From assembly GCA_031278655.1 (NCBI GenBank), contig JAITJZ010000062.1, positions 82-64,081 of the forward strand: a DNA stretch of 64,000 nucleotides. The letters run 5' to 3'. Positions 16,021 through 63,888 of this stretch are shown in pieces. A program made the position numbers and the translations under genes. The first letter of the stretch is position 1; each line of letters starts with the position of its first letter. The stretch is from Bifidobacteriaceae bacterium. GTDB taxonomy: Bacteria; Actinomycetota; Actinomycetes; Actinomycetales; WQXJ01. The notes under the pieces were generated by a model that was not told the DNA's origin, did no database searches, and was given only the letters and a program-made list of their open reading frames with translations.

Positions 16021-18033
16021 TCAGGCGGCGTTGTAGCCGGCGAAGTAGCCGGCCAGGACGGCCTCGTTCATTTGGCCGGCCTTGGCGCAGTCGCCGACCA
16101 GCCGGACGCTCGGGGCCGATCCGATGAACGCCTCCGCGCCCGCGCGCAGGGGGACCAGGCCGGCGGCGATCAAGATCAGGTCGGCGGGCAGGACCTCGTC
16201 CGGCGCGGCGGCGGCGGCGTGGGCGCCGGCGGGGCGCCCGGCCACGCCGCGCGGCTCGATCGCTGACGCCCGCCAGCCCAGGCGCAGCTCCAGATTGTCG
16301 AGAAGCTCGATCTGCTCCGTCAGGGCCAGGTGATGAAGATAGGGCGCGTCGGCCGCGAAGGACTCGGTCATTTCGACAATTGTGGTCGAGGCGCCGGCTT
16401 TGGCCCAGGCCAGCCCCTCCTCGACGCCGACCTGGCCGCCGCCTATGACCACGACCCTGAAAGAGCGGTCGCAGGGCGCCGGCTCGGGCCTGGCGGCGGA
16501 CGCGGCCCAGGCGACGCGCGGGTCGTCCAAGCCGGCGATGGGCGGCACGGCCGGGCGCGCGCCGATGGCCACGATCAGGCAGTCTGGCGCCTCGCGTTCG
16601 ACCAGCGCCGGCGTGGCCTCTTGGCCCAGCCGCAGGTCGATCAGCGGGTGGGTCGCCACGCGGGCGGCCAGGACGGCCACAAAGCGCCCGATGTCGGCCT
16701 TGAAGTCAGCCCGCCCGGCCAGTTCGAGCATGCCGCCCACCCGCTCAGACTTCTCCCACAGGCTGACGGCGTGGCCGCGTTCGGCCGCGCCCAGCGCGGC
16801 CTCAAGACCGGCCGGTCCGGCGCCAACGACCATGACCCGGAGCGGCGGGGCGGCGGGCACGCGGTCGCGGCGCAGGAAGGCGGCGTCGAGGCCGAACCAC
16901 GGGTTGACCGCGCAGTGGGCCACGCCGGCGTCGAATTTGACGTAGGGGACGAATCCGACCGACAGGCAGGTGTTGCAGCGCACGCAGGGCGTGATGTCGC
17001 CGGCCCGTCCGCGCAAGGCCTTGCGCGGCATCATCGGGTCGGCCACCAGCGTCCTGGCCAGGGCGACGGCGTCGGCTTGGCCGGTGGCGAGGATCTCCTC
17101 CAACTGGCGCGGGTCGCCAAGGCCGCCCACGGTCACCACCGGAATCGAGACGCGCCGCTTGACGGCGGCCGCCAGGTAAACGTTGACGCCGCGGGGGGTG
17201 AACATTGATGGGAACATCCGCAGGCCGGCGCGGCGGTTGTGGAAGTTGGCGGCGGACACATGGATCAAGTCGATCTTCGGCGCCAGCAATTCGGCGAAGT
17301 CAAGCAGGTCCTCTTGGGTGGCGCCGCCGGGCATCAGGTCGTCGCCGCTGATCCTGAACTCGATCGGGAAATCGGGTCCGCATTTGGCGCGGATGGATTC
17401 GGCCACCATCAGGGCGAACCGGGCCCGGTTCGCCAGCGGGCCGCCGAAGCGGTCTTCGCGCCGATTCGTCGCCGGGGCCAGGAACTGCGAGATCAGCCAG
17501 CCGTGGCCGGCGTGGACGGTGACGAAGTCGCAGCCGCCCCATTGGGCCAGTTCGGCGGCGTCGCCGAAGGCCGCCGCGATGACGGCGATCAACTCCTCGT
17601 CCAGTTGTTCGACGCGGTGCGACCCGTCGCCGTAATGCTCGAAGCCAGCGGACGGCCCGTAGACCTTGCCCTCGGCGTTGTAGGCCGGGTCGGCCCGCTC
17701 GCCGGGATGGAGCAGTTCGATCGACGCCAGGGCGCCGTGGCGGTGGATGGCGTCGGTGCAGCGGCTGAGGTGGGGCAGGAGGGTCGGGGTGTCCAGGCGC
17801 AAGAAGCCGCCGTGATTGTTGCCGGTGGCCGGGTGGACCAGCGTCTCGCCGATCACCACGGCCGCGGCCCCGCCCTTGGCGATGAGCTCGTATTGCGCCA
17901 CGCCGCTCTCCAAGAGCGAGCCGTAGTCCTTGACCTCTGCGCGCAGGCTCATCGGCGCCGAGGCGATCCGGTTCTTCCAGGTGGTCTTGCCCACACGCAG
18001 TGGGCTGAAAAGGGTTGGGAATTGGTGATGCAT
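16021..18033 (-). CDS. NADH:flavin oxidoreductase (Old Yellow Enzyme domain) fused to an FAD/NAD(P)-binding domain, 2,4-dienoyl-CoA-reductase-like
   Basis: The N-terminus FSPLRVGKTTWKNRIASAPM fits an OYE TIM barrel. There is a CVRCNTC...C Fe-S cluster motif and a VMVVGAGPAGLEAA Rossmann motif. Confidence 0.85.
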   Translation of the reverse strand: MHHQFPTLFSPLRVGKTTWKNRIASAPMSLRAEVKDYGSLLESGVAQYELIAKGGAAAVVIGETLVHPATGNNHGGFLRLDTPTLLPHLSRCTDAIHRHGALASIELLHPGERADPAYNAEGKVYGPSAGFEHYGDGSHRVEQLDEELIAVIAAAFGDAAELAQWGGCDFVTVHAGHGWLISQFLAPATNRREDRFGGPLANRARFALMVAESIRAKCGPDFPIEFRISGDDLMPGGATQEDLLDFAELLAPKIDLIHVSAANFHNRRAGLRMFPSMFTPRGVNVYLAAAVKRRVSIPVVTVGGLGDPRQLEEILATGQADAVALARTLVADPMMPRKALRGRAGDITPCVRCNTCLSVGFVPYVKFDAGVAHCAVNPWFGLDAAFLRRDRVPAAPPLRVMVVGAGPAGLEAALGAAERGHAVSLWEKSERVGGMLELAGRADFKADIGRFVAVLAARVATHPLIDLRLGQEATPALVEREAPDCLIVAIGARPAVPPIAGLDDPRVAWAASAARPEPAPCDRSFRVVVIGGGQVGVEEGLAWAKAGASTTIVEMTESFAADAPYLHHLALTEQIELLDNLELRLGWRASAIEPRGVAGRPAGAHAAAAAPDEVLPADLILIAAGLVPLRAGAEAFIGSAPSVRLVGDCAKAGQMNEAVLAGYFAGYNAA

Positions 18034-18120: not shown

Positions 18121-18141
18121 CCGCCGGCAGGCGGCCGGCGG
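18121..18141 (-). terminator. GC hairpin immediately after the E2 stop
   Basis: ccgccggc (18121-18128) pairs perfectly with gccggcgg (18134-18141) across a 5-nt loop. There is no U-tract, which is common in actinobacteria. Confidence 0.4.
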
Positions 18142-19764
18142 TTAGAGCCCGAGTTCGGCCTCGAAGCCGGTGGCTTCGAGGCGCTGTTTGATGGCGGCCA
18201 GGAACTTGGCCGCGTCCGATGGCGTGATCAGCCGCGAGTCGTAGGACAGGGCCAGGTAGGAGGTCGACCGCACGGCGATGCCCTCGCCGACCACCACCGG
18301 GCGGCGGGTGACGGCGCCCACGGACAGCACCGCCGCCTGCGGCGGCTCGATGATCGGGAAGTCCAGCATCAGGTCGGGTCCGGCCGGCGCGGTCAGGGTG
18401 AAGGTGCCGGCCGCCAGGTCGCTCGGGGCCAGCGCGCTGGACGCCGCCCTGGCCTTGACCCCGGCGATGGCCCGCGCCATGCCCACCAGCCCCAACGATC
18501 CGGCGTCATTGACGACCGGCACCAGCGGCCCGGACGGCGTGAAGACGGTCACGCCCAGGTTCTCCTGGGCGTAATAGGTCACGTCCCCGTCCACGATGGC
18601 GGCGTTGAAGACCGGGTTGGCCTTCAGCGCCTCGACGGTGGCGCGGGCGAAGAACGGGTCGGCGGTCAGTTCGACGCCCTCGCGCTCGAGGAAGCGCCGC
18701 CCGCCGCGGGCGATCAGCCGGACCACTTCGGTGACGTCGACCTCGGCCACGGATGTCAGCTGCGTCGGTTGGTAGACCTCGTGCAGTTGGCGCTCGATGG
18801 CGCGCAGGCGCGGCAGCCGCTCCAGTTCCGCCGCCGAGGCCGCCTGGGTGGGCGGTTCCGGCGGCGCCGCGGCCGCCAGCACGTCTTCGCGCCGGATGCG
18901 CCCGCCAACGCCGCTGCCTTGGACGCCGGCCAGGTCGACGCCGACTTCGTGGGCCAGTTTGCGCACCAGCGGGGTGATGTAGGGCGCGGTGTCCGATGCC
19001 GTCTGGCCGCTCCCAGCGGCCGTCTCGGCGGCGGTCGGGGCGGCGGTCGGGGCGGCGGCCGGAGCGGCGGCCGGGGTGGGCGGTTCCGCGGTGGCGGTCG
19101 GGGCGGGCGGTTCCGGAGCGGCGGGCGGTTCCGGGGCGGCGGCCGGGGCGGGCCACGGGCCTGGGGCCGGCGCTGGCGCGGGCTCTGGCGCGGGCTCTGG
19201 CGCGGCCGACTCGGCGGCGGGCCCGGGCCACGGGCTCGGCTCAGGCTCAGCTTGAGGCTCAGGCGCCGAGGCCTGGGCCTGGCTGGGCGCGGGCTCCGAC
19301 CAGGCGATCGGCATGGGCTCAGGCTGAGGCTCAGGCTGAGCCGCCCGGCTCGGGGCCGGCTCGGGCTCAGGCGGTTCGAAGGCCAGCCGCGACGAGGGCG
19401 CCGCGTGCGCCGGGGCGTAGGCGCTCGGCTGCACGGCTGGGGCCGGCTGCGCGGCTGGGAACGGCTGCGCGGCTGGGACTGGGGCGACGGCATCGGGCAA
19501 CGGTGGGCTCGACGGCGCCTCCCCGGGCTCGCCAACGACAGCCAACGGCGCCCCGACCTCAACCACCGCGTCCTCGGCGGCCAAAATCTCCAGCAGGACC
19601 CCGCCGAAGGGCGACGGGATCTCGGTGTCAACCTTGTCGGTGGAAATCTCCACCAGCGGCTCGTCGACGGCCACCGGGTCGCCGACCTTCTTCAGCCACT
19701 GGGTGACGGTGCCCTCGGTGACGGACTCGCCCAGGGCTGGCATGGGGACCTGCTGAGACATCAT
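18142..19764 (-). CDS. sucB: 2-oxoacid dehydrogenase E2 (dihydrolipoyllysine acyltransferase homologue) with a degenerate catalytic motif
   Basis: Has a lipoyl domain (LVEISTDKVDTEIPSP), a roughly 190-aa Pro/Ala linker, a PSBD (YITPLVRKLAHEVGVDLAGVQGSGVGGRIRREDV) and a catalytic-domain fold ending ..FLAAIKQRLEATGFEAELGL. However, DHRxxDG is replaced by DSRLITPSD. Start at ATGATG 19764 with GGAG upstream. Confidence 0.85.
   Translation of the reverse strand: MMSQQVPMPALGESVTEGTVTQWLKKVGDPVAVDEPLVEISTDKVDTEIPSPFGGVLLEILAAEDAVVEVGAPLAVVGEPGEAPSSPPLPDAVAPVPAAQPFPAAQPAPAVQPSAYAPAHAAPSSRLAFEPPEPEPAPSRAAQPEPQPEPMPIAWSEPAPSQAQASAPEPQAEPEPSPWPGPAAESAAPEPAPEPAPAPAPGPWPAPAAAPEPPAAPEPPAPTATAEPPTPAAAPAAAPTAAPTAAETAAGSGQTASDTAPYITPLVRKLAHEVGVDLAGVQGSGVGGRIRREDVLAAAAPPEPPTQAASAAELERLPRLRAIERQLHEVYQPTQLTSVAEVDVTEVVRLIARGGRRFLEREGVELTADPFFARATVEALKANPVFNAAIVDGDVTYYAQENLGVTVFTPSGPLVPVVNDAGSLGLVGMARAIAGVKARAASSALAPSDLAAGTFTLTAPAGPDLMLDFPIIEPPQAAVLSVGAVTRRPVVVGEGIAVRSTSYLALSYDSRLITPSDAAKFLAAIKQRLEATGFEAELGL
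19029..19076. repeat. 12-bp tandem repeats (cggcggtcgggg x2, cggcggccggag, cggcggccgggg) within the E2 linker
   Basis: Read directly from the sequence. They encode AAPAAAPTAAPTAA-type linker units. Further 12-bp units (ctggcgcgggct x2) lie at 19173-19196. Confidence 0.85.
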
Positions 19765-19800: not shown

Positions 19801-19828
19801 GGCGGTCAAGCGTGGGCGGTCAAGCGTG
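19801..19828. repeat. 14-bp perfect tandem duplication ggcggtcaagcgtg x2 that includes the lpd stop codon
   Basis: Read directly from the sequence. The lpd stop (tca, 19820-19822) is in copy 2, and copy 1 carries the same tca at 19806-19808, in the lpd-sucB spacer. Confidence 0.9.
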
Positions 19829-21199
19829 GGCATGGAGTGGTTTGCCGGCCAAGGCCAGGAAGGCTTCGCCGATGGCCTCGTCCTGGGTGGGGTGGGCGTG
19901 GACCAATTCGGCCACGTCCTCAGGGTAGGCCTCCCAGTTGACGATCAGTTGGGCTTCGCCGACCAGTTCGCCGATGCGCCGGCCGAGCATGTGGACGCCC
20001 AGCACCGGCCCGCCCGCCAGGCGCACCAGTTTGACGAAGCCCTGCGCGCCCAAGACCTGGCTCTTGCCGTTGCCGGCCAGGTTGTATTCGACGGTCTCGA
20101 TGGCGTCCTCGCCGTGCTCGGCCTTGGCGGCGGCCTCGGTCAGGCCGACGGAGGCGATCTCCGGGTCGCAGTAGGTCACGCGCGGGATGCCGGACTCGAT
20201 CAGCGGGGCCGGGCTCAGCCCGGCGAGGCGCTCGGCCACAGCTATCCCCTGGGCGAAGCCCCGATGGGCCAGTTGCAGCCCGGGCACAATGTCCCCGACC
20301 GCCCAAACCCCGGGCAGATTGGTGCGCAGCTGAGGGTCGGTCGGCACAAAGCCGCGGTCCATCGCCAGGCCGACGCGCTCGAGCCCGGCGCCCCCGGTGT
20401 TGGGGCCGCGCCCGACCGCCACCAGCAGCACGTCGCCGCTGAGCTGCTCGCCGTTCTCGAGCCGGACCGAGACCTGGTGGTCCTCTTGCCAGACCTCGGC
20501 CACCTTGACGCCCAGTTTGTAGCCGATGCCGCGCTTCCTGAATGAGCGCTCCAGCAGTTTCGAGACGGCCAAGTCCTCGTTCGGGGCCAGATGGTCCAGC
20601 GCCTCGACCACTGTCGGCTTGGCCCCGAAGGACGCCCACAGCGAGGCGAACTCCAGGCCGATCACCCCGCCGCCCAACACCAACGGGTTGGTCGGCGCCC
20701 AATCCAGCTCAAGGGCCTGGTCCGAGGTCATGACCCGGCGCCCAATCGTCACGCCGGGCAGCGAGCGCGGGCTCGAGCCCGTGGCCAGGACCAGCTGGCG
20801 GCCCTCGATCACTTGGTCGCCGACTTTCACCTGGGTGGCCGAGACGACCTCGCCCCGGCCTTCGACCAGGCGCACGCCCCGGCCCGAGACCAGGCCCAGC
20901 AGTCCCTTGTGGAGGCGGTCGATGACGCCGTTCTTGAAGGCGTTGACGCCGTTCATGTCGATCCCGCCGAGGGCCGAATGGACGCCGTATTTGGCCGATT
21001 CCCGAATCTGGTCGGCGACCTCGGCCGAGTGCAGCATGGCCTTGGTCGGGATGCAGCCGCGGTGCAGACAGGTCCCGCCGACTTTGTCGGCCTCGACCAG
21101 GGCCACGTCCAGGCCCAGTTGGGCCGCGCGCAGGGCGGCGGCGTAGCCGCCGCTCCCCGCGCCCAAGATGACGACGTCGTGAACGGCTGGTTCGGCCAC
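19820..21199 (-). CDS. lpd: dihydrolipoyl dehydrogenase (E3)
   Basis: Has VVILGAGSGGYAAA, the redox disulfide GGTCLHRGCIPTK and the C-terminal HAHPT His-Glu motif. Start taken at GTG 21199 (VAEPAVHD), with GAGGAAGG upstream. Confidence 0.9.
   Translation of the reverse strand: MAEPAVHDVVILGAGSGGYAAALRAAQLGLDVALVEADKVGGTCLHRGCIPTKAMLHSAEVADQIRESAKYGVHSALGGIDMNGVNAFKNGVIDRLHKGLLGLVSGRGVRLVEGRGEVVSATQVKVGDQVIEGRQLVLATGSSPRSLPGVTIGRRVMTSDQALELDWAPTNPLVLGGGVIGLEFASLWASFGAKPTVVEALDHLAPNEDLAVSKLLERSFRKRGIGYKLGVKVAEVWQEDHQVSVRLENGEQLSGDVLLVAVGRGPNTGGAGLERVGLAMDRGFVPTDPQLRTNLPGVWAVGDIVPGLQLAHRGFAQGIAVAERLAGLSPAPLIESGIPRVTYCDPEIASVGLTEAAAKAEHGEDAIETVEYNLAGNGKSQVLGAQGFVKLVRLAGGPVLGVHMLGRRIGELVGEAQLIVNWEAYPEDVAELVHAHPTQDEAIGEAFLALAGKPLHAHA

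Positions 21200-21766: not shown

Positions 21767-21793
<27 letters not shown>
21359..21793 (+). CDS. conserved hypothetical protein
   Basis: The body reads LEHLRGFAATRVGVEAYIEPPNAQIQTTLLLVATTGEWTRRKVPD...IPVYDVNFTGYPQRMRDW. GTG 21359 lies 7 nt after TAGGCT (21346-21351). The tail is low-complexity. No function is assignable. Confidence 0.5.
21700..21760. repeat. 36-bp-period duplication (25-nt core cccctccggggcgccgggccaatcc x2)
   Basis: The two copies are at 21700-21724 and 21736-21760. They encode PSGAPGQSWTPG / PSGAPGQSGASG in the + gene and lie just outside the stop (21767) of the convergent pepA. Confidence 0.9.
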
Positions 21794-23245
<1,452 letters not shown>

Positions 23246-23251
23246 CTGGCA

Positions 23252-23270
23252 ATGTTAGGGCAGGTAACCT
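23252..23270. promoter_or_regulatory. back-to-back -10 hexamers for divergent, probably leaderless, pepA and pyrD
   Basis: On the minus strand TAACAT (23257-23252) is followed by 6 nt and GTG 23245. On the plus strand TAACCT (23265-23270) is followed by 8 nt and GTG 23279. Confidence 0.45.
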
Positions 23271-23278
23271 GGGGAACC

Positions 23279-24496
23279 GTGTATCGGGCGCTTTTCAACC
23301 TTTTCTTCCGGCGGCTGTCGCCGGAGCGGGCGCACGGCCTGGCGCTGGCGCTGATCGCGGCCATGGGCGAGTTCGGGCCCGGCCGGGCATTGGCCCGGGC
23401 CTGCTTCCGGGTTGGGCGCGTGGGTTGGCCCACGCTCCCGGCGGGCGGCGGGGAGCGGCCGGGCCGGCTAGACCCGGCGGCATCGTCCGATGACGACCGG
23501 GCGGGCCAGGCGGTCCCGGCGGGCGGCGGGGAGCGAACGGACCCGGCCGGCCGCCAACTGACGGGCCGGGCCGGCCGCCAACTGTTCGGGCGCGACCTGC
23601 CCGGTCCGCTCGGCCTGGCGGCCGGTTTCGACAAGGACGCCAAGGCGGTCAAGGGCCTGGCGGCCCTCGGGTTCAGCTTTGTCGAGGTCGGCACGGTGAC
23701 GCGCTTCCCGCAGCCGGGCAATCCGCGCCCGCGGCTGTGGCGGCTGATCGACCAGCGGGCCCTGCGCAACGCCATGGGCTTCAACAACGCCGGCTCGACG
23801 GCGGTGGCCCGGACCCTGCGGCGGCTGCGGGCCTCGGCCGGCGGCGGCGACCTGGTGGTGGGCGTGAACATCGGCAAATCAAAGGTGACCGATCCGTCCG
23901 AGGCGGCCGGGGACTACTTCGTGTCCGCCCGCAGGCTCGCCAAATACGCCGATTACCTGGTGGTGAACGTGTCCTCGCCGAACACCCCGGGCCTGCGGGA
24001 CCTGCAAGCGGTGGCCGCCCTCAGACCGATCCTCCAAGCCGCCCGCGCCGGGGCGGATCAGTCCCTGGCCCGGGCGGGGCGCCCGGGCCGGACGCCGCTG
24101 CTGGTCAAGATCGCGCCGGACCTGTCTGACGCGGACGTGGACGCCGTGGCGGCCCTGGTCGAGGAACTGGACCTGGACGGCATCGTGGCGGTCAACACGA
24201 CTGTGGCGCATGACCTGGGGGCGGGCGGGCTGTCCGGCCCGCCGCTGCGCCAGCGCGGCCTGGAGGTGGTGCGCCGCCTGCGCGGCCAACTCGGGGCCGG
24301 CCGCACGGTCATGGGCGTGGGCGGGATCGCCAGCGCCGCCGACATCGCGGACTACCTGGCCGCCGGCGCCGACGCGGTCCAGGCCTACACGGCTTTCATC
24401 TACCAGGGGCCGGCCTGGCCGGCGCGCGTCCAACGGGCCCCGGCCCGCGGCCGGGCGGCGCCAGGCGCCCTCAGGAAGGGTATTCGCCCCTCTTGA
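23279..24496 (+). CDS. pyrD: dihydroorotate dehydrogenase (quinone), class 2, with a ~50-aa repeat-built insertion
   Basis: Opens [19 protein letters not shown] (class-2 N-terminus) and contains [18 protein letters not shown] and [15 protein letters not shown]. An alternative ATG lies at 23252. The 775-aa track ORF is an antisense-of-pepA extension. Confidence 0.85.
23436..23584. repeat. nested direct repeats inside pyrD (22-nt core at 78-bp period; 16-nt core at 24-bp period)
   Basis: tcccggcgggcggcggggagcg occurs at 23436-23457 and 23514-23535. ggccggccgccaactg occurs at 23545-23560 and 23569-23584. All periods preserve the frame. Confidence 0.9.
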
Positions 24497-29695: not shown

Positions 29696-30460
29696 GTGAA
29701 GGCTGTGACGACACTCGGGACTTCTATGCCTCGGCAAGCAGCCCCAGCGTCGGTGCTGGACAAGGCCAGACGGATGCTCCGATTGGCCGAGGCGAAGACC
29801 GGCGTTGGCGCTGTCGGCGCCAATCCGGAGGTTCGCCCCGCCCGGCGGGATCCGTGGGGCGAGCCTGAAAACCGGTCCAGCGGCCAGCTAGGTCAGTCCC
29901 TTGTCAGCACGCGATTCGGTGGCGCGGTCGAGCATGAAAGCCTCCACACCGATTGGCGCCAGCTGACACCGGCGGAACTGGCGCGGCTGGCCGGGCCGTC
30001 CTTCCTGCCCGGCACGGTGGCCCAAGTCAGCGGCTCGCTGGCGGCTTTCTGGGCGGTGGCCGCGACTGGGATGGGGGCCGAGGACTGGGCCGCCATCGCC
30101 GGCTTGCCGGAGGCCGGTTTGCTGGCGGCGGCCGAGGCCGGGCTGGTCCTCAGCCGCACGGTGGTGGTCCCAGACCTCGGCGCGCGGCCGCTCAAGGTGC
30201 TGGCCGGGCTGGTGGACGCTTACGGCCTGGTGCTGGCCGGGCGGTTGAGCCTCGGCGGCGGCGACCGCCGCCGGATCGAGGCGCGCTTGCGCTTCACCGG
30301 CGGACGGTTGATCACAACCGGCGAATGGGGTGGCGCCAAACTGATCGTCAAGGTCAAAGCCCGGCGCGGGGAGTCCCTGGGGGAGGGGCGGGGAGCGACT
30401 GGCCAACCGCGCCTGGACCTGGAGCTGACCCGCAAAGGCAGTTTCGGGGCCTGGCCATGA
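29696..30460 (+). CDS. imuA': ImuA' (inactive RecA/SulA-like mutasome accessory protein)
   Basis: Called from its position as the first gene of the imuA'-imuB-dnaE2 cassette, its size (about 250 aa) and the ATGA coupling to imuB. Sequence conservation is weak, as is usual for this family. The start is uncertain (GTG 29696 or ATG 29726). Confidence 0.65.
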   Translation: MKAVTTLGTSMPRQAAPASVLDKARRMLRLAEAKTGVGAVGANPEVRPARRDPWGEPENRSSGQLGQSLVSTRFGGAVEHESLHTDWRQLTPAELARLAGPSFLPGTVAQVSGSLAAFWAVAATGMGAEDWAAIAGLPEAGLLAAAEAGLVLSRTVVVPDLGARPLKVLAGLVDAYGLVLAGRLSLGGGDRRRIEARLRFTGGRLITTGEWGGAKLIVKVKARRGESLGEGRGATGQPRLDLELTRKGSFGAWP

Positions 30461-32109
30461 GCGGCGGCGGCGCGGCTGGAGCGGCGGCGGCTGGAACGGC
30501 GGCGGCTGGTACGGCGGCGGCTGGTACGGCGGCGGCGGCTCAAGGCGGTCCGGCGGTCCGGCGGTTGGCGGCGATCTGGATTCCCGATTGGCCGGTGGTG
30601 GCGGCCATCGGCGCTGGGGCGGCGCCAGCCGGGAAGCCGGTCGTGGTGGCGGACGCCCATCGCGTCAAAGCGGTCAGCGCGGCCGCGCGCGCGGCCGGGG
30701 TCAGGCGCGGCATGAAGCGGCGCACGGCCATGTCGCTCAGCCCGGGAGCGACGGTGGTCCAGGCGGACCGGGCGCGGGATGCCCGCGCTTTCGAGGAACT
30801 CGTCATCGTGGTGCAGGCGTTGGCGCCGGCCGTCGAATTGCTGCGGCCGGGGTTGATGGTCTGCCCGGCCATCGGCGCCGCCCGCTATTACGGCGGCGAC
30901 GAGGCTTTCGCGGAACAGATTCTGACCGAGGTGGCCGCCGAGGTCGGGACCGAGGCCTGGGCCGGGGTGGCGGACGGCTTGCTGGCCGCGACCCTGGCCG
31001 CCCGCGACGGGCGGGTGGTGGCGCGGGGGGACTCGCGCCGTTATCTGGCGCCGCGCCCGCTGGCGGATCTGGGCGTGGCCCTGCGCGGCACCGCCAACGG
31101 CGAGAACCTGGACGCGCTGATGGACCTGCTGACCCGTCTGGGCATCAAAACTCTGGGCGAGCTGGCCGCTTTGCCGACGCGCAACGTGACCGAGCGGTTC
31201 GGCGCGGTCGGCGTCTGGGCGCAGCGTTTGGCCAGGGCGGAGGACGGGCTGGGCGCGCCCGGCCACGAGTTGCCCCGCAAGTTCGCAGCGGTCGTGGACG
31301 CCGATCCGCCGATGACGCGGGTCGATCAGGCCGTGGCGGCGGCCCGGCGGTTGGCGCAGGACTTGCACGCGGAATTGGTCGCGCGCGGCCAGGCCTACGA
31401 CCGGTTGCGGATCAGCGCCATCACGGAGACCGGTCAGCAATTGGAGCGGACGTGGCGTTTGGACGGGGTCGACGCCGCCGGCGTCAAAGACCGCGTGCGC
31501 TGGCAGCTCGAGGGCTGGTTGGCGGGGCGCAGCGGCGTGGCGCCGACCGGCGCCCTGACACGGCTCAGCCTTGAGGCCGAGGAAGTCCATCCGGCCGGCG
31601 CCGGTTCGTCGCGGTTGTGGGGGAGCGGCGGCTACGCCGCGGCGCGGGCGGTTCGCGGGGCCGAGCGGATTCACACCATGTTGGGGGGAGGCGGCGTCTA
31701 TCAGCCGGTGGCGCAGGGCGGCCGGGAGCCGCGCGGACGGGTGCGGCTGGTCGAATGGGGTGAGGACACCGTTCCGCTCAGGCCCCTCGACCGGCCTTGG
31801 CCGGGGGCGGTGCCGGAGCCGGCCCCGAGCCTGGTGCCGCCCAACCCCCTGCCGGTGGAACTGGTCGACTCCGACGGCCGGACGGTCCGGGTGGGGCCGG
31901 CGCTCGAGTTCAGCGCCGGACCCGCCCGCTTGGACGAGGCTGTCGTCAAGGGCTGGGCGGGGCCCTGGCCGGTGGTGGAGCGGTGGTGGGGGCCGCAGCC
32001 GAAACGGCGGGTTTACCTCCAGGTCCAAACCCAGTGCGGCGAGCGGGAGGAGACCGTTTTGCTGTCCTGCGAAGCTGGCCGATGGCGTTTGGAGGGGGTT
32101 TATGACTGA
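30457..32109 (+). CDS. imuB: ImuB, Y-family-polymerase-like mutasome protein
   Basis: LAAIWIPDWPVVAA is a typical ImuB opening, and the body is Y-family-like. ATG 30457 overlaps the imuA' stop. The 718-aa track ORF is an N-extension. Confidence 0.85.
   Translation: MSGGGAAGAAAAGTAAAGTAAAGTAAAAQGGPAVRRLAAIWIPDWPVVAAIGAGAAPAGKPVVVADAHRVKAVSAAARAAGVRRGMKRRTAMSLSPGATVVQADRARDARAFEELVIVVQALAPAVELLRPGLMVCPAIGAARYYGGDEAFAEQILTEVAAEVGTEAWAGVADGLLAATLAARDGRVVARGDSRRYLAPRPLADLGVALRGTANGENLDALMDLLTRLGIKTLGELAALPTRNVTERFGAVGVWAQRLARAEDGLGAPGHELPRKFAAVVDADPPMTRVDQAVAAARRLAQDLHAELVARGQAYDRLRISAITETGQQLERTWRLDGVDAAGVKDRVRWQLEGWLAGRSGVAPTGALTRLSLEAEEVHPAGAGSSRLWGSGGYAAARAVRGAERIHTMLGGGGVYQPVAQGGREPRGRVRLVEWGEDTVPLRPLDRPWPGAVPEPAPSLVPPNPLPVELVDSDGRTVRVGPALEFSAGPARLDEAVVKGWAGPWPVVERWWGPQPKRRVYLQVQTQCGEREETVLLSCEAGRWRLEGVYD
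30474..30533. repeat. 15-bp tandem repeat ggctgg[a/t][g/a]cggcggc x4 at the imuB N-terminus
   Basis: Read directly from the sequence. It encodes AAGAAAAGTAAAGTAAAGTAAAA. Confidence 0.9.
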
Positions 32110-35100
32110 TTACGCCGAACTGCACGCGCACAGCGCTTTCAGCTTCCTGGACGGTTGCAGCCAGCCGGCGGATTTGGCCTATCAGGCGGCCAGGCTTGGG
32201 CTCAGCGCCATGGCCATCACCGACCACGACGGCCTTTACGGCGTGGTCCAATTCGCCGAGGCGGCCCGGGAAGTCGGCTTGCCGACGGTCTTTGGCGCCG
32301 AATTGACGCTCGACGGCGGCGATGAGGCGCCCGGCGCCGATGACCCTCCCGGCACGCATTTGCTGGCGTTGGCGCGGGGCCCGGACGGCTACAAGCGCCT
32401 CAGCCGGGCGATCGCCGAGAGCTATTTGGCGGTCGGGGCCAAGGGTCCGCCGCGCTACCGGTTGGAAGATTTGGCCGATGCCGCCGGCGGCGAATGGTTG
32501 GTTTTGACCGGTTGCCGCAAAGGGGCTGTCCGCCGCGCCCTGGCCTCGCGCCCGCAGGCGGCCGGGCGATCGGCCGCGTGGGAGTTGGACCGGCTGGCGA
32601 GCCTGTTCGGCCGGGACAACGTGGCGGTCGAGATCACCGATTCGGGCAGCCCCGAAGACCCGGCCGTGATCGCGGCGCTGAGCGAATTGGCGGCCTCCGC
32701 CGGCCTGCCGCTGGTCGCCACCGGCAACGTCCACTACGCCCAGACCGGCCAATTCACCATGGCCGCCGCCATGTCCGCCATCCGCGGGCGGCGCAGCCTC
32801 GAGGAAATGGATGGTTACCTGCCCGCCGGCCCAACGGCGGCGCTGCGTTCACCGGCGCAAATGGTCTCGCGTTTGAGCCGCCACGGACCTGCGGCGCCGT
32901 CCGCCGTGGCGGCCGCCGGGGTGATCGGCGCTGAGTGCGCCTTCGACCTGAAGCTGATCGCGCCCAAGTTGCCGCCGGCAAATGTGCCCCCCGGCCATGA
33001 CGAAGACAGCTGGCTCGAGGAGCTGACTTGGCGTGGCGCCGAGAGCCGCTACGGCCCGCGCGGATTTGGCAGCGCCAAGGCGTACCAGATCCTCGAACAC
33101 GAGTTGAAGGTCATCAAAGACTTGGGCTTTCCCGGTTATTTCCTGATCATGCATGAGGTTGTCGAGTTCTGCCGGGAGCGCGGCATCCTCTGCCAGGGGC
33201 GGGGCTCGGCCGCCAACTCGGCGGTCTGCTACGCGCTCGGCATCACCGCCGTCGACGCGGTTCGCCACGGCCTGCTGTTCGAGCGCTTCTTGGCGCCGGA
33301 GCGCGAGGAATACCCCGACATCGACCTCGACATCGAGTCCGGCCGCCGCGAGGAGGTCATCCAACACGTTTACCAGCGTTACGGCCGCGACCGGGCGGCC
33401 CTGGTCGGGTCGGTCATCACTTACCGGCCGAAGCTGGCCCTGCGTGACGCGGCGCGCGCTCTCGGCTACGACATCGGGCAACAAGACGCCTGGTCCAAAC
33501 AGGTCGAACGCTGGGGCCATCTCCACCGCGGCCGGGTCCGTTACGTCCCCTGGGGCCGGGGCGGCGCCGGGCCGGTCGACGCCGACGACGACCTCAGCGC
33601 CATCCCCGAAGACGTTCTTGGCCTGGCCGAGACGTTCATGCATTTGCCGCGCCACCTCGGCATTCACCCCGGCGGCATGGTCCTGGCGGACCAACCGGTG
33701 ATCGACGTCTGCCCGGTGCAGTGGGGCCGGATGGAGGACCGGTCGGTCTTGCAGTGGGACAAGGACGATGCCGCCGCCGCCGGTTTGGTCAAATTCGACC
33801 TGTTGGGTTTGGGCATGTTGGGCGCCGTCAGGTTGGCGTTCGAGGAGATCGAGAGGGTCGAGGGCGTCAGCTGGCAGATGCACACCATCCCGGCGGAACG
33901 CCCGGAAGTCTACGACCTGCTGTGCGCGGCCGACACGGTCGGGGTTTTCCAGGTCGAGTCGCGGGCCCAGATCGCCACCCTGCCGCGGCTGCGGCCGCGG
34001 CGGTTCTACGACATCGTGGTGGAAGTGGCGTTGATCCGTCCGGGGCCGATCCAAGGCGGCTCGGTCCATCCTTACATCGAGCGGGTCCGGGGCCGCCAAC
34101 CGGTCACCTATGACCACGAATTGCTGCGCCCGGCCTTGGAGCGGACCCTGGGCGTGCCGCTGTTCCAGGAGCAACTGATGCAGATGGCCATCGCTGCGGC
34201 TGGTTTCAGCCCCGGCCAGGCCGATCAACTGCGCCGGGCGATGGGCTCGAAGCGATCGGTCGAACGCATGGAGGCTCTGCGCCAAGATCTGATGGACGGC
34301 ATGCGGGAGCGGGGGATCGGCCCGGCCGCGCGGTTGAAGATCTACGACCAGTTGAAGGCCTTCGCCGACTTCGGTTTCCCGGAGTCGCACTCGTTCTCCT
34401 TCGCCCTGATCGTCTATGTCTCGGCCTGGTTGAAGGTGTTCCACCCGGCGGCTTTCTACGCCGCCATCTTGGCCTCGCAGCCGATGGGTTTCTATTCGCC
34501 GCAATCGCTGGTGGCGGACGCCCGCCGTCACGGATTGGCCGTGCGCGGGCCGGATGTGCAGCTTTCGCCCGCCCAGGCGGGCGTTGAACGGACCGGGCCG
34601 GGCGACCGGCCCCGCAGCCAACTGCTGCGCGGCGACCCGAACCTGGGTGTGAGACTGGGTTTGGCGTCGGTTCGAGGGATCGGCCTGAAGAAAGCCGAGG
34701 CCATCCAGGCCGAACGCGAGCAAGGCGGCGCCTTCCGGTCGCTGACCGATCTGGCCCACCGCTGCCGATTGACGCCCTATCAAATGGAGGCGCTGGCCAC
34801 CGCCGGGGCGTTGACCGCCCTGGAGCCGGAGCGGCGCAAGGCGTTGTGGGCGGCGGGCGCGACCGGCGCGGCCGGGGAGTTGCCGGGCACCACCCCCGGC
34901 CTCAACGCCCCGACCCTGCCGGGCATGTCTGACGAGGAACTGGCGCTGGCGGACATGTGGGCGACCGGCGTGACCTTGGCCGAATACCCGACCGTCCATG
35001 TCCGCGCCGAATTGGACAGGGCGGAGGTCGTCCCGAACAACCAGGTGGCAGCCCACCCGGACGGGGAGTGGATCAAGGTGGCCGGGGTGGTGACCCACCG

Positions 35101-35338
35101 CCAGCGTCCCGGCACCGCCGGCGGCGTCACCTTCTTGAACCTTGAGGACGAGACCGGCCAGGTCAACGTCATCTGCACGGCCGATGTCTGGAACCGGTTC
35201 CGGAAAATCGGCCGGACGGCATCGGCCATGGTGGTGGCGGGCCGGCTGGAGAACCGCGACGGGAGCGTCGGGGTCAAGGCCGGCCACCTGCACCCGCTGT
35301 ACCTGAAAGTGCCGACCCGGTCGCGCGATTTCCACTGA
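32102..35338 (+). CDS. dnaE2: error-prone DNA polymerase III alpha-subunit paralogue
   Basis: MTDYAELHAHSAFSFLDGCSQP is a PHP domain. The body is Pol IIIalpha-like and the OB-fold tail reads VAGVVTHRQRPGTAGGVTFLNLEDETG. It overlaps the imuB stop by 8 nt. Confidence 0.92.
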   Translation: MTDYAELHAHSAFSFLDGCSQPADLAYQAARLGLSAMAITDHDGLYGVVQFAEAAREVGLPTVFGAELTLDGGDEAPGADDPPGTHLLALARGPDGYKRLSRAIAESYLAVGAKGPPRYRLEDLADAAGGEWLVLTGCRKGAVRRALASRPQAAGRSAAWELDRLASLFGRDNVAVEITDSGSPEDPAVIAALSELAASAGLPLVATGNVHYAQTGQFTMAAAMSAIRGRRSLEEMDGYLPAGPTAALRSPAQMVSRLSRHGPAAPSAVAAAGVIGAECAFDLKLIAPKLPPANVPPGHDEDSWLEELTWRGAESRYGPRGFGSAKAYQILEHELKVIKDLGFPGYFLIMHEVVEFCRERGILCQGRGSAANSAVCYALGITAVDAVRHGLLFERFLAPEREEYPDIDLDIESGRREEVIQHVYQRYGRDRAALVGSVITYRPKLALRDAARALGYDIGQQDAWSKQVERWGHLHRGRVRYVPWGRGGAGPVDADDDLSAIPEDVLGLAETFMHLPRHLGIHPGGMVLADQPVIDVCPVQWGRMEDRSVLQWDKDDAAAAGLVKFDLLGLGMLGAVRLAFEEIERVEGVSWQMHTIPAERPEVYDLLCAADTVGVFQVESRAQIATLPRLRPRRFYDIVVEVALIRPGPIQGGSVHPYIERVRGRQPVTYDHELLRPALERTLGVPLFQEQLMQMAIAAAGFSPGQADQLRRAMGSKRSVERMEALRQDLMDGMRERGIGPAARLKIYDQLKAFADFGFPESHSFSFALIVYVSAWLKVFHPAAFYAAILASQPMGFYSPQSLVADARRHGLAVRGPDVQLSPAQAGVERTGPGDRPRSQLLRGDPNLGVRLGLASVRGIGLKKAEAIQAEREQGGAFRSLTDLAHRCRLTPYQMEALATAGALTALEPERRKALWAAGATGAAGELPGTTPGLNAPTLPGMSDEELALADMWATGVTLAEYPTVHVRAELDRAEVVPNNQVAAHPDGEWIKVAGVVTHRQRPGTAGGVTFLNLEDETGQVNVICTADVWNRFRKIGRTASAMVVAGRLENRDGSVGVKAGHLHPLYLKVPTRSRDFH

Positions 35339-35378
35339 CAACCCATGTTTTTGGCCGGCGATGTGGTAGAGCAGACTG

Positions 35379-36152
35379 GTGGACCGCGACGCCCCGGCGC
35401 CCGAGCGACTTCAGGCGCGCCAACTCCAGGACATGATCGACGCCTCCGGCCGGATAGTTTTCTTTGGCGGGGCCGGCGTCTCGACCGAGTCTGGCATCCC
35501 CGATTTCCGCTCGGCCGACGGCCTGTACACGGCTGGCGGCCCAATCCCGCCGGAGGTCGTGCTGTCGCGCGAGTTCGCGGACGGCCAGACTCTCAGCTTC
35601 TTCGAGTTCTACCGCCGGCATTTGGTCCATCCCGAGGCGCGGCCGAACGCGGCCCACCTGAAACTGGCCGCCCTCGAGCGGGCCGGGCGCCTGCGCGCCG
35701 TCGTCACCCAGAACATCGACGGCCTGCATCAGGCGGCGGGTTCCAAACGGGTGATCGAGTTGCACGGCTCGGTCCACCGCAACCGCTGCCGCGCCTGCGG
35801 GCGGCGGCACTCGTTGGAGCGGGTCATGGGCGCCCAGGGGGTCGCGTTTTGCGACTGCGGCGGCGTGATCATGCCGGAGGTGGTGCTCTACGGCGACCCG
35901 CTGGACGCGGACGTCTGGGCCGCGGCGGCGGATGAGGTCGCGCGCGCGGACATGCTCATCCTCGGTGGGACCTCTTTGACCGTCTTCCCGGCGGCGGCGC
36001 TGGTCGACTACTTCGAGGGCGAGCGTCTGGCGGTCATCAACAAGACCCGGCCGGACGGCATCGGGCGCTGGGGCGGCCGGGCGCTGACCATGACCCGGCC
36101 CATCGGCGAGGTCATGGCCGGCGTCGAGGCCAAACCGGTGGGCCGTGGCTGA
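35379..36152 (+). CDS. cobB: NAD-dependent protein deacylase (Sir2 family)
   Basis: Contains FFGGAGVSTESGIPDFRS, TQNIDGLH and the zinc ribbon CRACG...CDCGG. It is 257 aa with no extra domains. Confidence 0.85.
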   Translation: MDRDAPAPERLQARQLQDMIDASGRIVFFGGAGVSTESGIPDFRSADGLYTAGGPIPPEVVLSREFADGQTLSFFEFYRRHLVHPEARPNAAHLKLAALERAGRLRAVVTQNIDGLHQAAGSKRVIELHGSVHRNRCRACGRRHSLERVMGAQGVAFCDCGGVIMPEVVLYGDPLDADVWAAAADEVARADMLILGGTSLTVFPAAALVDYFEGERLAVINKTRPDGIGRWGGRALTMTRPIGEVMAGVEAKPVGRG

Positions 36153-48252: not shown

Positions 48253-49515
48253 GTGCACCCCTGGACCGGCCCGATAGTCAGCGTCATCCCTGGCACCGGC
48301 GAGGTCCCCCAGATTCACGACGACATCAGCGGCGGGCTGCGCCCGAGCGTCGTCGGCGAGCGCGCCAACCTCTATGTTTGCGGGATCACGCCCTACGACT
48401 CGACCCATCTGGGGCACGCCTTCACCTATCTGGCCTTCGACCTGTTGGTCCGGGCCTGGCGCGACCTGGGCGTGGGCGTGCGCTACGCCCAAGGGTTGAC
48501 GGACGTTGACGACCCGCTGCTGGAGCGCGCGCGCGCGACCGGCAAAGACTGGCGGAAGATCGCCGCCCAACAGACGGCGCTTTACAAGGCCGACATGGCG
48601 GCGCTGCGCGTGATCCCGCCGGACTCCTACCGGGGGGTGGTCGAATCGGTGCCGCAGATCGTGGCCGCGGTCGAACGGATGATCGACGCCGGGCGGGCTT
48701 ACCGCGTGCCGGTGGCCGGATCGGGCGCCTCCAGTTTGGGCGACGTCTACGCCGACCTCGGCGCCGACCCGGACTACGGCGGCCTCAGCCGCCTCAGCCG
48801 CGAGGCCCAGGACCGGTTGTTCTCCGAACGCGGCGGCGACCCGGACCGGCCCGGCAAACGCGACCGGCTCGACCCGCTGCTGTGGCGGGCGGCGCGCGCG
48901 GGCGAGCCGTCGTGGGACGGGCGGACCCTGGGCCGCGGGCGGCCCGGCTGGCACATCGAGTGCGCCGTCATCGCCTCGGCCGAGTTGGACCAGCCTTTCG
49001 ACGTCCTGGGCGGCGGGCGCGACCTGGTCTTCCCGCATCACGAGATGTCGGTCTCGCATTCGCGCGCGCTGAGCGGGCTGGAGGCGCCCGCCCGCTTGTC
49101 GATGCACACCGGCATGGTCCATTACGACGGCCAGAAGATGTCCAAATCCGTTGGCAACCTGGTGTTCGTGTCCGAGTTGCTGGATCGCGGCGTCAACCCG
49201 GCCGCCTTGCGCCTGGCGCTGATCGGCCACCACTACCGGGGCGACTGGGAGTGGCGCGGGCGCGAGTTGGCCCTGGCCGAGGCCCGCCTGGCGCGCTGGC
49301 GCGAGGCCATCGGCTCGGTCAAACCGCAAGGGCCCTCCGGTGAGACGATCGCCAAAATCCGCTCGGCCCTGGCCCGGGACCTGGACACGGCCGCCGCCAT
49401 CGCCGCCGTCGATGATTGGGTCAGCGCGGCGCCGCTGGCGCGCGAGCGCTCGCCGTACGCGGCCGCCGATCTGCGCCGGGCCATCGACGCGCTGTTGGGG
49501 ATCAAGCTTTACTGA
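48253..49515 (+). CDS. mshC: cysteine--1-D-myo-inosityl 2-amino-2-deoxy-alpha-D-glucopyranoside ligase (mycothiol biosynthesis)
   Basis: A CysRS-like class I enzyme with YVCGITPYDSTHLGHAFTY and KMSKSVGN. It lacks a tRNA anticodon-binding extension. GTG 48253 directly abuts the uppP stop. Confidence 0.9.
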   Translation: MHPWTGPIVSVIPGTGEVPQIHDDISGGLRPSVVGERANLYVCGITPYDSTHLGHAFTYLAFDLLVRAWRDLGVGVRYAQGLTDVDDPLLERARATGKDWRKIAAQQTALYKADMAALRVIPPDSYRGVVESVPQIVAAVERMIDAGRAYRVPVAGSGASSLGDVYADLGADPDYGGLSRLSREAQDRLFSERGGDPDRPGKRDRLDPLLWRAARAGEPSWDGRTLGRGRPGWHIECAVIASAELDQPFDVLGGGRDLVFPHHEMSVSHSRALSGLEAPARLSMHTGMVHYDGQKMSKSVGNLVFVSELLDRGVNPAALRLALIGHHYRGDWEWRGRELALAEARLARWREAIGSVKPQGPSGETIAKIRSALARDLDTAAAIAAVDDWVSAAPLARERSPYAAADLRRAIDALLGIKLY

Positions 49516-49591: not shown

Positions 49592-49650
49592 CTTGGGGTC
49601 ACTTTTCGGCCGGCCTTGGGTCTTGCTGGTCGGCCGGCCTTGGGGTCACT
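49592..49650. repeat. about 24-bp unit x3 (cttgggg-tcact../..cggccggc) between the convergent mshC and PAC2 genes
   Basis: cttggggtcact occurs at 49592-49603 and 49639-49650. cggccggccttggg occurs at 49607 and 49631. The last copy contains the PAC2 stop (49646-49648). The two GGCCGGCC palindromes could pair as a bidirectional terminator. Confidence 0.75.
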
Positions 49651-50461
49651 GGTTGCCGCGACGGCGCAGGTAGCGCTCGAACTCTTTGGCCAGGGCCTCG
49701 CCGGAGGCGGCGGGCGAGTCGAGGGCGTCGTTGGCGGCCTCGAGCGAGGCGATGTAGCCGGCGATCTCCGGGTCGCTGGCGGCCAGAGAATTGACGCCTT
49801 CGGTCCAGGCCCGGGCTTCGTCCGCGAGTTCGGCGGTGGGCAGATCGTCCAGGCCGAGGATCTCCGCCAGCTTGCCGATGATGGCCAGCTCGGCCTTGGG
49901 CGAGGGCGGGTTGGCGACATAGTGAGGCACCGGCGCCCACAGCGCCATCGACTCGATCCCGTGATCTTCGAAGGCCGTTTGCTCCAGCACTGAGACGATC
50001 CCGGTGGGGCCTTCGTAGCTGGGCTGGTCGCCGCCGAACTGGCGGCGCAAGCTCTCCGACTCGGAAGTGATCTGAACCGGGATGGACCGCGAGTGGGGCA
50101 CATCTGCCAGCAGCGCTCCGACCACGATCAACTGGTCGACCTCCCATTGCCTCAGCCGCTCGATGACCTCTGCGGTGAACGTTTGCCAATGAAAGGACGG
50201 CTCGACGCCGCAGACAAGAATCAGCGGCTCGCCGCCGGGGGTCTCGGTGGTCCAAAAGTCGGTGCTGGGCCAACGCAGGTGGCGCCTCCCGTCCGCGTCG
50301 ACGCGGACCAGTGGGCGGTTGACCTGGAAATCGCAGTAGTCCTCGGGGCTGATCGAACCGGCGTCCTCCGCGCCTAGGCTGTGAGCCAAGAAGGTGATGG
50401 CGTCGCTGGCCGCCGACCCGGCGTCGTTCCAACCGGCGAAGGCGGCAATGGCTGTGGACAC
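49646..50461 (-). CDS. PAC2 (proteasome assembly chaperone 2-like) family protein
   Basis: Contains FAGWNDAG, EPSFHW and PTGIVSVLE. TAAAGT lies 6 nt upstream of GTG 50461. Confidence 0.8.
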   Translation of the reverse strand: MSTAIAAFAGWNDAGSAASDAITFLAHSLGAEDAGSISPEDYCDFQVNRPLVRVDADGRRHLRWPSTDFWTTETPGGEPLILVCGVEPSFHWQTFTAEVIERLRQWEVDQLIVVGALLADVPHSRSIPVQITSESESLRRQFGGDQPSYEGPTGIVSVLEQTAFEDHGIESMALWAPVPHYVANPPSPKAELAIIGKLAEILGLDDLPTAELADEARAWTEGVNSLAASDPEIAGYIASLEAANDALDSPAASGEALAKEFERYLRRRGNQ

Positions 50462-50558
50462 CCGCTCACTTTACTAGGGGGATATCATTCGACCTGACCG
50501 GCGCGCCGTCCGCGCCGCCGCAGTCGCCAACCAACCACGTCAACGTCAGGAAGACCGC

Positions 50559-57867: not shown

Positions 57868-57880
57868 GTAGGCTGGGGCG

Positions 57881-63371: not shown

Positions 63372-63888
63372 GGCGGAGGGCGGCGCGCCGGCCACCAAGA
63401 CCGCCCGCCAGGCGCTCATCCGGCAGTTGATCCGCTCGCAGGCGATCCGCTCGCAGGCGCAGTTGGCTGATCGGCTGGCCGAGGGCGGGCTGGAGGTCAC
63501 CCAGGCGACGCTCAGCCGCGACCTGGTGGAACTGCGGGCCGACAAGATCCGCCTGGCGGACGGCTCGCGCGTCTACGCCGTGGCGGCGGAGGGCGCCGAG
63601 GCCGCCTGGGAGGGCGACCTCAGCCGCGAGATGCTGGCCGCGCGCCTGCGCCGGCTGGTGGCGGAACTGCTGGTCAGCGCCGAGGGCAGCGCCAATATGG
63701 TGGTGCTGCGGACGCCGCCGGGGGCGGCTCACTTCTTGGCCTCGGCGATCGACCAGTCCTTTTTCCCCGGTGTCATGGGGACCATCGCGGGCGATGACAC
63801 GATTGTGCTGGTGACCCGCGAACCGAGCGGCGGCCCGGAGATCGCGGCCCGCTTCATCGAATTGGCGAACGAAGGAGAAGGAACATGA
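63364..63888 (+). CDS. argR: arginine repressor
   Basis: The N-terminal winged helix reads [26 protein letters not shown]. The C-terminal region [12 protein letters not shown] is the oligomerisation/arginine-binding domain. Confidence 0.9.
63429..63458. repeat. perfect 15-bp tandem duplication gatccgctcgcaggc x2 in the argR DNA-binding domain
   Basis: Read directly from the sequence. It encodes [10 protein letters not shown]. Confidence 0.95.

Follow-up and report, generated by a model that had tools for sequence, protein, structure and literature searches.

An actinobacterial SucB/DlaT-type E2 without the catalytic histidine: a candidate lipoyl carrier and dock for dihydrolipoyl dehydrogenase

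Introduction

The dihydrolipoamide acyltransferase (E2) component forms the catalytic core of 2-oxoacid dehydrogenase complexes. To our knowledge, its sole accepted non-catalytic relative is the E3-binding protein (E3BP) of eukaryotes, and a literature search found no description of bacterial E2s that lack the catalytic histidine in the manner considered here. In this article, the gene for such a protein is described from a stretch of 64,000 nucleotides (the window; positions 82 to 64,081 of contig JAITJZ010000062.1, assembly GCA_031278655.1, labelled as a Bifidobacteriaceae bacterium), together with its relatives in a clade of metagenome-assembled genomes (MAGs). The product is a bacterial E2 orthologue without the histidine, the arginine that contacts coenzyme A (CoA) and dozens of otherwise invariant residues, yet it is under enzyme-like purifying selection throughout the clade.

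The E2 gene and its domains

The gene is a single uninterrupted open reading frame (ORF) of 540 codons. An initial annotation of this DNA had recognized in it a lipoyl domain, a peripheral-subunit-binding domain for dihydrolipoyl dehydrogenase (E3, Lpd) and a full catalytic-domain fold, all of which were recovered with Pfam (Table 1), and the predicted lipoyl-lysine, K44, lies within EISTDKVDTEIPSP (codon 19633-19635). In a phmmer search against the PDB, the best solved relative was Mycobacterium tuberculosis DlaT (E=1e-125), followed by Corynebacterium glutamicum AceF (2e-60), and the C-terminus RLEATGFEAELGL aligns with RLEEGAFEADLGL of DlaT, so that the correspondence to DlaT through to the last residues, previously judged by eye, is confirmed. 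The protein is the syntenic orthologue of actinobacterial SucB/DlaT/AceF. Its score against the NCBIfam actinobacterial SucB equivalog TIGR02927 is 402.4 bits, under the trusted cut-off of 423.45.

Table 1. Coordinates of the E2 gene, its domains and altered sites, and the adjoining genes (positions in the window).
Feature	Position	Strand	Remarks
E2 (SucB/DlaT orthologue) without catalytic His	18142..19764	minus	540 aa; start MMSQQVPMPALGES agrees with orthologues
Lipoyl domain, aa 5-76	19537..19752	minus	Pfam PF00364 Biotin_lipoyl, 9.8e-21
Ala/Pro-rich flexible linker, aa 77-257	18994..19536	minus	longest of the clade
Peripheral-subunit (E3) binding domain, aa 261-296	18877..18984	minus	Pfam PF02817 E3_binding, 2.6e-14
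Catalytic-domain fold, pseudo-catalytic, aa 321-540	18145..18804	minus	Pfam PF00198 2-oxoacid_dh, 2e-41
Ile351 at the CoA 3'-phosphate-binding Arg position	18712..18714	minus	6zzi_A alignment
FTLTAPAG replacing FTxTNxGS	18379..18402	minus	Thr458 kept; Asn459, Ser462 lost
D-S-R-L-I-T-P-S-D replacing DHRxxDG	18214..18240	minus	Ser510 codon TCG 18235-18237
Phe534 of the actinobacterial C-terminal Phe-containing insertion (trimer-only E2 signature), kept	18163..18165	minus	
GC-rich 8-bp hairpin CCGCCGGC-CGCCT-GCCGGCGG	18121..18141	minus	directly 3' of the E2 stop; no T-run
lpd (dihydrolipoyl dehydrogenase)	19820..21199	minus	intact CxxxxC and HAHPT..E motifs; 55 nt upstream of E2
pepA (M17 leucyl aminopeptidase)	21767..23245	minus	conserved syntenic anchor of the pepA-lpd-E2 block

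Public gene calls (P0001; also P0003, P0004, P0006 and P0008) begin at the E3-binding domain, the NCBI call comprising 274 aa, and omit the lipoyl domain, which is in frame, along with about 180 aa of Ala/Pro-rich linker (window 18145-19764). The JGI label on His-less proteins is 'dihydrolipoamide succinyltransferase'. The hairpin that follows the stop codon is a possible end of the lpd-E2 transcription unit. A scan for promoters and terminators gave no usable information, the DNA being GC-rich.

Loss of the acyltransferase site

In the PDB alignments, the window segment SYDSRLITPSDAAKFL lies on TYDHRLIDGADAGRFL of DlaT and TYDHQVVDGADAGRFL of AceF, with SYDSRLITPSD aligned to TYDHRLIDGAD and FTLTAPAG aligned to FTITNIGS. 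Profile alignments place Ser510 at the position of the catalytic His and Thr-Pro (514-515) at the Asp-Gly four and five residues past it. The DNA from 18240 to 18214 reads gac tcg cgg ctg atc acg cca tcg gac, with TCG at 18237-18235, and both the DNA and the alignments to DlaT and AceF bear out the earlier reading of DSRLITPSD with a TCG codon in place of His. The reading of the oxyanion region as FTLTAPAG was likewise correct, but the oxyanion residue itself proved to be retained. When this residue is taken as the Thr or Ser directly before the Asn, with Thr323 of E2o (the E2 of 2-oxoglutarate dehydrogenase) from Escherichia coli placed by counting back from His375, its counterpart is Thr458, which is invariant in the clade described below, and only the Asn and the loop after it are lost.

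The breadth of the change was assessed by comparing 23 clade sequences with 89 active E2s over the 135 alignment columns with 90% or more conservation among the latter. The clade retains 84 of these columns, has a different residue fixed in 14 and varies in the other 37. Among those lost are Arg351, Lys355, Asp408, Arg441, Asn459, Ser462, Thr469, Gly481, His510, Asp514, Gly515 and the N-terminal RGT strand, while Tyr508, Asp509, Arg511, Thr458 and the C-terminal Phe534 are kept. Ile351 of the window protein is the counterpart of Arg480 of C. glutamicum AceF and Arg450 of Azotobacter vinelandii (6zzi_A alignment). In AceF, the guanidinium group of Arg480 forms a salt bridge to the 3'-phosphate of CoA (Bruch et al. 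preprint, bioRxiv 10.1101/2020.07.24.212647). This column holds Arg in all 89 active E2s and Ile, Val, Thr or Met in the clade.

The accelerated divergence is restricted to the catalytic domain, in which the clade is 47% identical to active E2s, compared with 71% among the active E2s themselves; the lipoyl domain has hardly diverged, the corresponding values being about 72% and 78%. An AlphaFold (AF2) model built on the clade alignment has a predicted local distance difference test (pLDDT) score of 78, and its sole poorly defined internal loop follows FTLTAP. The best Foldseek matches of the model are M. tuberculosis DlaT (target-normalised TM-score 0.81) and C. glutamicum AceF (0.79), so in the predicted structure the catalytic-domain fold is retained.

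The protein of the window departs from active E2s in three defining respects, namely the DHRxxDG motif, the CoA arginine and the equivalog cut-off. With catalytic and CoA-binding residues gone, the acyltransferase site appears to be lost, as the initial annotation had proposed, and the case is strengthened by the missing 3'-phosphate arginine and the many other invariant residues that have disappeared; the inactivity of the protein is a prediction from its sequence.

Distribution, age and selection

The best 120 matches in the homology search comprised 30 clade sequences, 52-100% identical to the window E2, and 90 other proteins. The His is absent from all 30 clade sequences listed (27 with DSR, two with DPR and one with DRR), whereas DHR is present in 89 of the 90 other proteins. 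The clade includes at least 10 GTDB species-representative MAGs in addition to the window, as well as many JGI metagenome contigs; its MAG isolate names include Nc350_bin167, Gsp477_bin170 and Md513_bin114, and this naming, together with the associated literature, points to an origin in termite guts. The STDKVDTE turn that carries the lipoyl-lysine is present in every full-length clade member, the sequence GVGGRIRREDV of the E3-binding domain is invariant across the clade, and Phe534 (...GFEAELGL) is found in most members.

The deeper branches of this clade have TN and DSRLIDG, and the inner clade has TA and DSRLITP, which indicates that the site was eroded stepwise. The codons found at the His position across the clade are TCG, TCC, CCG and CCC, and a path CAC>CCC>TCC>TCG accounts for the three-base difference between a His codon and the TCG of the window.

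In eight species (the window and seven others), the lipoyl domain, linker, E3-binding domain and catalytic domain are encoded in one unbroken ORF. Selection was measured as pairwise Nei-Gojobori ratios of nonsynonymous to synonymous substitution rates (dN/dS). The catalytic domain, with a dN/dS of 0.06-0.19 in the inner clade, cannot be told apart there from Lpd (0.08-0.29); the lipoyl domain gives 0.03-0.14 and the E3-binding domain about 0.1-0.4. Over all genome pairs, the median falls from 0.22 in the catalytic domain through 0.16 in Lpd to 0.10 in the lipoyl domain. These values are rough because dS often exceeds 1, but they are still far from neutrality, and purifying selection acts on all three domains of the E2. 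The best explanation is that the loss of acyltransferase function dates to early in the termite-gut lineage and that the gene has been kept as a protein since. That the gene is instead decaying, the alternative offered in the initial annotation, or results from misassembly is hardly credible: many normally invariant sites are substituted and public gene calls shorten the E2 to 274 aa, but decay is ruled out by the loss of the His in 30 of 30 listed clade members, by the lack of stops and frameshifts in eight species and by dN/dS far below 1 in all domains, and the His-less state recurs in independent assemblies from NCBI, JGI, ENA and Logan.

Gene neighbourhood

The order pepA-lpd-E2 is an ancestral actinobacterial block, and in the window all three genes are on the minus strand. 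The adjacent lpd, initially described as functional in appearance, has the redox disulfide motif GGTCLHRGCIPTK (CxxxxC) and the C-terminal HAHPTQDE intact, and at 66-69% identity to the Cellulomonas and Kineosporia enzymes its product is not unusually diverged.

In an actinobacterium with a live E2, the gene order is pepA...lpd-E2-epimerase-x-LipB-LipA-DUF4191-glnA. In the clade, the E2 is directly followed by DUF4191-glnA1-panD-glnE-glnA2 (L001, L002, L006, L008, L009 and L012/L013, and L004 with DUF4191 inverted). LipB, LipA and GcvT queries taken from the live-E2 control gave no match in any clade locus, and LipB and LipA gave none in the window. The initial remark that lipB-lipA do not follow the E2 therefore holds for the whole clade, and the loci show that these genes were removed from the ancestral cluster, which is a statement about the loci and not about whole-genome loss. 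A live-E2 outgroup (L018, with an Lpd 69% identical) is likewise without lipB-lipA at that place, so the missing slot is not proof of lost lipoate synthesis. When nearly every plausible ORF of the 64-kb window was compared with Pfam and NCBIfam, no E1, odhA/kgd, aceE, lipA, lipB, lplA, ahpC or ahpD was found.

On the other side of the block, gcvT adjoins pepA in other actinobacteria (L014, L017 and L018), and in the termite clade its place beside pepA is taken by pyrD (DHO_dh; window 21965-24496; e.g. L012 3457-4506). With gcvT replaced by pyrD, the cluster lacks a second function that depends on lipoate. The gene next after the E2 in the window (16021-18033) has its own ribosome-binding site and encodes a 670-aa fusion of an old yellow enzyme (OYE)-type FMN oxidoreductase and a pyridine-nucleotide-disulfide oxidoreductase. 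This fusion is specific to the window genome, its relatives having DUF4191-glnA at that place.

Other E2 proteins without the histidine

An exhaustive profile search was made over 1.84 billion cluster representatives, of which the best 150 were considered. Among these, 12 further His-less E2 representatives were found, one of which (a 'Micrococcales bacterium' MAG) is a member of the termite clade. Of the rest, the majority lie nearer to active E2s than to that clade, which argues for independent losses, and the CoA arginine has also been lost in nine of the 12.

One group, the 'D[SA]C' clade (P0151, P0154 and P0283-P0292), is diverse, with 43-77% identity, and well populated, a single 90% cluster within it holding 289 sequences; further His-less E2s are P0191, P0129, P0127, P0149 and P0185. 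In three loci, from the 'D[SA]C' group and a Propionibacteriaceae MAG, lipB-lipA lie directly downstream of the His-less E2, the E2 and lipB overlapping in two of the three, and the lipoyl TDKVDT motifs of these E2s are intact. This linkage, together with the intact motif, argues that such His-less E2s are still lipoylated. The other His-less actinobacterial E2s resemble the window E2 in having lost the His, kept the lipoyl motifs and usually kept the actinobacterial C-terminus, and they differ from the termite clade in having two lipoyl domains, in adjoining lipB-lipA and, for most of them, in their independent origin.

The E2s of the 'D[SA]C' clade (L015 10001-13765; L016 10001-13639) have DHR replaced and the CoA arginine lost, and carry two lipoyl domains; this clade occurs solely in Logan and ENA assemblies, and its nearest named relatives are Dietzia and Corynebacterium. 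The Propionibacteriaceae MAG (P0191; L017 7888-13702) has an independently derived His-less E2 with DYR upstream of LipB-LipA, and at its lpd position there is a FAD_binding_2/DAO-type protein and no clear Lpd.

Comparison with known systems

The closest well-characterized counterparts are C. glutamicum AceF and M. tuberculosis DlaT, with which the window E2 shares orthology, pepA-lpd-E2 synteny, domain order and the C-terminal Phe-containing insertion. In the species of AceF and DlaT, the lipoyl arms also serve OdhA/Kgd in trans, in a hybrid supercomplex that combines the dehydrogenases for pyruvate (PDH) and 2-oxoglutarate (ODH). Three differences can be recognized. The DH(R/Q)xxDG motif and the CoA arginine of the active acetyltransferases AceF and DlaT are replaced by DSRxxTP and Ile in the window E2, which has one lipoyl domain against two or three in those enzymes and is not followed by lipB-lipA.

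A second comparison is with the eukaryotic E3BP (protein X, PDHX), which is catalytically inactive and has a pseudo-catalytic C-terminal domain (PMC466950). The order of lipoyl domain, E3-binding domain and inactive E2-like domain is the same as in the window E2, as is the logic of a carrier combined with an E3 dock. At the catalytic position, human E3BP presumably also has Ser in place of His. The window E2 is not PDHX by descent, since the match to PDHX (6h60) reaches only 2.4e-20, against 1e-125 for DlaT and 2e-60 for AceF. It arose from a bacterial E2 in place, without duplication, and replaces the E2, whereas E3BP accompanies one; unlike E3BP, it has no known active E2 partner.

Proposed function and its limits

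An E2 whose site is lost and whose gene is nevertheless intact and under selection is most likely to serve as a swinging lipoyl arm and docking platform. On balance, it is probable that the protein is a pseudo-E2, kept as a lipoyl carrier and Lpd dock and no longer an acyltransferase. The first part of this proposal, a lipoyl carrier and E3 scaffold, had been put forward in the initial annotation and now receives indirect support from the unaccelerated lipoyl domain, the conserved E3-binding domain, the canonical Lpd encoded alongside and the retained Phe insertion. Selection would maintain a lipoylatable swinging arm, an E3-binding domain that holds the Lpd encoded directly upstream and a trimer-forming C-terminal fold that acts as a scaffold, not as a CoA-dependent catalyst. 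Lpd with NAD(H) would oxidise or reduce the lipoyl group on the carrier, and acyl transfer to CoA, if any, would be carried out by another protein. The most likely candidate for this partner is an OdhA/Kgd-type fusion of the E1 and E2 components of ODH (E1o-E2o), which has its own succinyltransferase domain and depends on lipoyl groups that an E2 of this type provides in trans. Lipoylation, true inactivity and the identity of the partner are all three what we infer from these data.

Several observations weigh against this proposal. Neither the 64-kb window nor related loci totalling about 200 kb contain odhA/kgd, aceE or any other E1, and the absence of lipB-lipA after the E2 in every clade locus, where no ligase was seen either, leaves lipoylation unproven. 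The catalytic domain is constrained like a real enzyme, which would also fit a retained or altered activity, and Asp509, Arg511 and Thr458 are kept in the clade. In E. coli E2o, the His375Ala exchange causes a loss of only 54-fold, His375Gly keeps 13% and His375Trp 60% of the activity, and the His375 variants overall keep 0.5-60% (PMC5986005). Moreover, OdhA has been reported absent from Bifidobacteriales (Bruch et al., bioRxiv 10.1101/2020.07.24.212647), the label that NCBI gives to the clade MAGs.

This family label may be loose, however: the clade MAGs have a GC content of 61-71% and carry a PAC2 gene as well as a mycothiol-type ligase, and the Lpd nearest to theirs is that of Cellulomonas. 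The window genome has 70% GC, and in the window an MshC-like cysteine ligase (tRNA-synt_1e) lies at 48253-49515 and a PAC2-family gene at 49646-50470. The termite Bifidobacteriaceae of Kästle Silva et al. (PMC11707648), for which PDH is stated to be absent, are an endosymbiont lineage with a low GC content of 33-43%. That lineage differs from the present clade, and the absence of PDH is therefore not transferable.

A broader proposal, to be held only tentatively, is that, as lineages gave up PDH, E2 scaffolds without the His and serving only as carriers arose repeatedly among anaerobic or host-associated Actinobacteria. Since actinobacterial OdhA has its own succinyltransferase domain, the site of the PDH-type E2 (E2p) would become dispensable once a lineage drops PDH. 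The termite-gut clade, the Propionibacteriaceae MAGs and the populous 'D[SA]C' clade with its lipB-lipA linkage would be the examples. If this is true, bacteria would have arrived by convergence at a counterpart to the E3BP of mitochondria, and nature would have dissected the PDH/ODH supercomplex.

Alternative explanations

As a serious rival, though a fairly unlikely one, the pseudo-E2 could belong to an antioxidant redox relay, in which NADH and Lpd reduce the lipoyl arm and the arm then serves AhpD/AhpC or an Ohr/OsmC-type lipoyl-dependent peroxidase, Ohr being an enzyme of this kind. Such a relay needs no E1 and no acyl transfer, so the catalytic residues would have decayed. It is in agreement with a conserved unit that is exactly lpd-E2, with no E1 nearby, and with the termite-gut habitat, an iron superoxide dismutase (Fe-SOD) near the locus in relatives and the mycothiol-type cysteine ligase in the window. 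There is also a precedent, as M. tuberculosis DlaT is the core of a peroxynitrite reductase/peroxidase and its lipoate is directly reducible by E3 and NADH (PMC12995895). The Lpd-DlaT-AhpD-AhpC system uses only the Lpd-reducible lipoyl arm, for which the lpd-E2 pair found here would suffice, provided that it undergoes the same reduction. The M. tuberculosis DlaT, however, is also active in PDH, and AhpD and AhpC were not found near the window E2 locus; nor was any ahpC, ahpD or ohr gene found in the window or the related loci. A relay alone would in addition leave unexplained why the trimeric pseudo-catalytic domain is under selection as strong as that on Lpd.

It is quite unlikely, in turn, that the protein is still an acyltransferase of reduced, altered or differently catalysed activity, in which the His is dispensable or has been replaced. 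The authors of the E2o study argued that the His acts via hydrogen bonding and not as a base, and found Asp374 to be as important as the His (PMC5986005); the counterpart of this Asp, Asp509, shows no variation in the clade, nor do Arg511 and Thr458. A catalytic-domain dN/dS equal to that of Lpd is in line with such an enzyme, as are the 14 positions fixed clade-wide to new residues, e.g. Thr406, Pro413, Ser481, Met466-Leu467 and Phe469. Against this stand the loss of the CoA 3'-phosphate arginine, Asn459, Ser462, Asp514-Gly515 and about 45 more residues that active E2s hardly ever vary, many of which differ between clade members. The site is still drifting, with Ser, Pro or Arg at 510 and DG>DS>TP at 514-515, while DHR is kept by all but one of the other proteins among the matches listed, and the loop past Thr458 is modelled at low confidence. 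Residual catalysis is less likely given the breadth of these losses, above all that of the CoA arginine.

A subunit that, like E3BP, joins a second and active E2 from another locus and contributes only E3 and an extra lipoyl arm would have the domain order and pseudo-catalytic C-terminal domain seen in mammalian E3BP (PMC466950). This is very unlikely here, as the window E2 occupies the ancestral pepA-lpd-E2 slot of a single SucB/DlaT-type E2 and not the place of a duplicate, the organism name of the clade MAGs occurs only on His-less E2s among the matches listed, and the E2p cores of actinobacteria form trimers or hexamers and no large mixed shells.

If the protein is indeed a pseudo-E2 kept as lipoyl carrier and Lpd dock, a lipoyl arm, an E3 dock and a trimer scaffold would be selectable as a unit by themselves, and the clade would provide a natural test of the model in which actinobacterial OdhA/Kgd needs E2p for its lipoyl groups only. 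Annotation pipelines would then be overcalling acyltransferase activity, with many gene calls dropping the lipoyl domain.

Other features of the window

Further genes of the window lie outside the E2 block. In a mutagenesis cassette at 29938-35338, the gene for an ImuB-like Y-family polymerase (IMS domain) precedes that for error-prone DnaE2 (NF004225, 1371 bits). The 1259-aa ORF at 31559-35338 had been considered as an OdhA candidate and was rejected, as it is this DnaE2. A Sir2/CobB-type NAD-dependent protein deacylase is encoded at 35370-36152; some sirtuins remove lipoyl groups. A complete arginine cluster, comprising argC, argJ, argB, argD, argF and argR, extends over 57872-63888, and two tandem paralogous esterase/lipase genes of the Abhydrolase_3 family are located at 641-2780.

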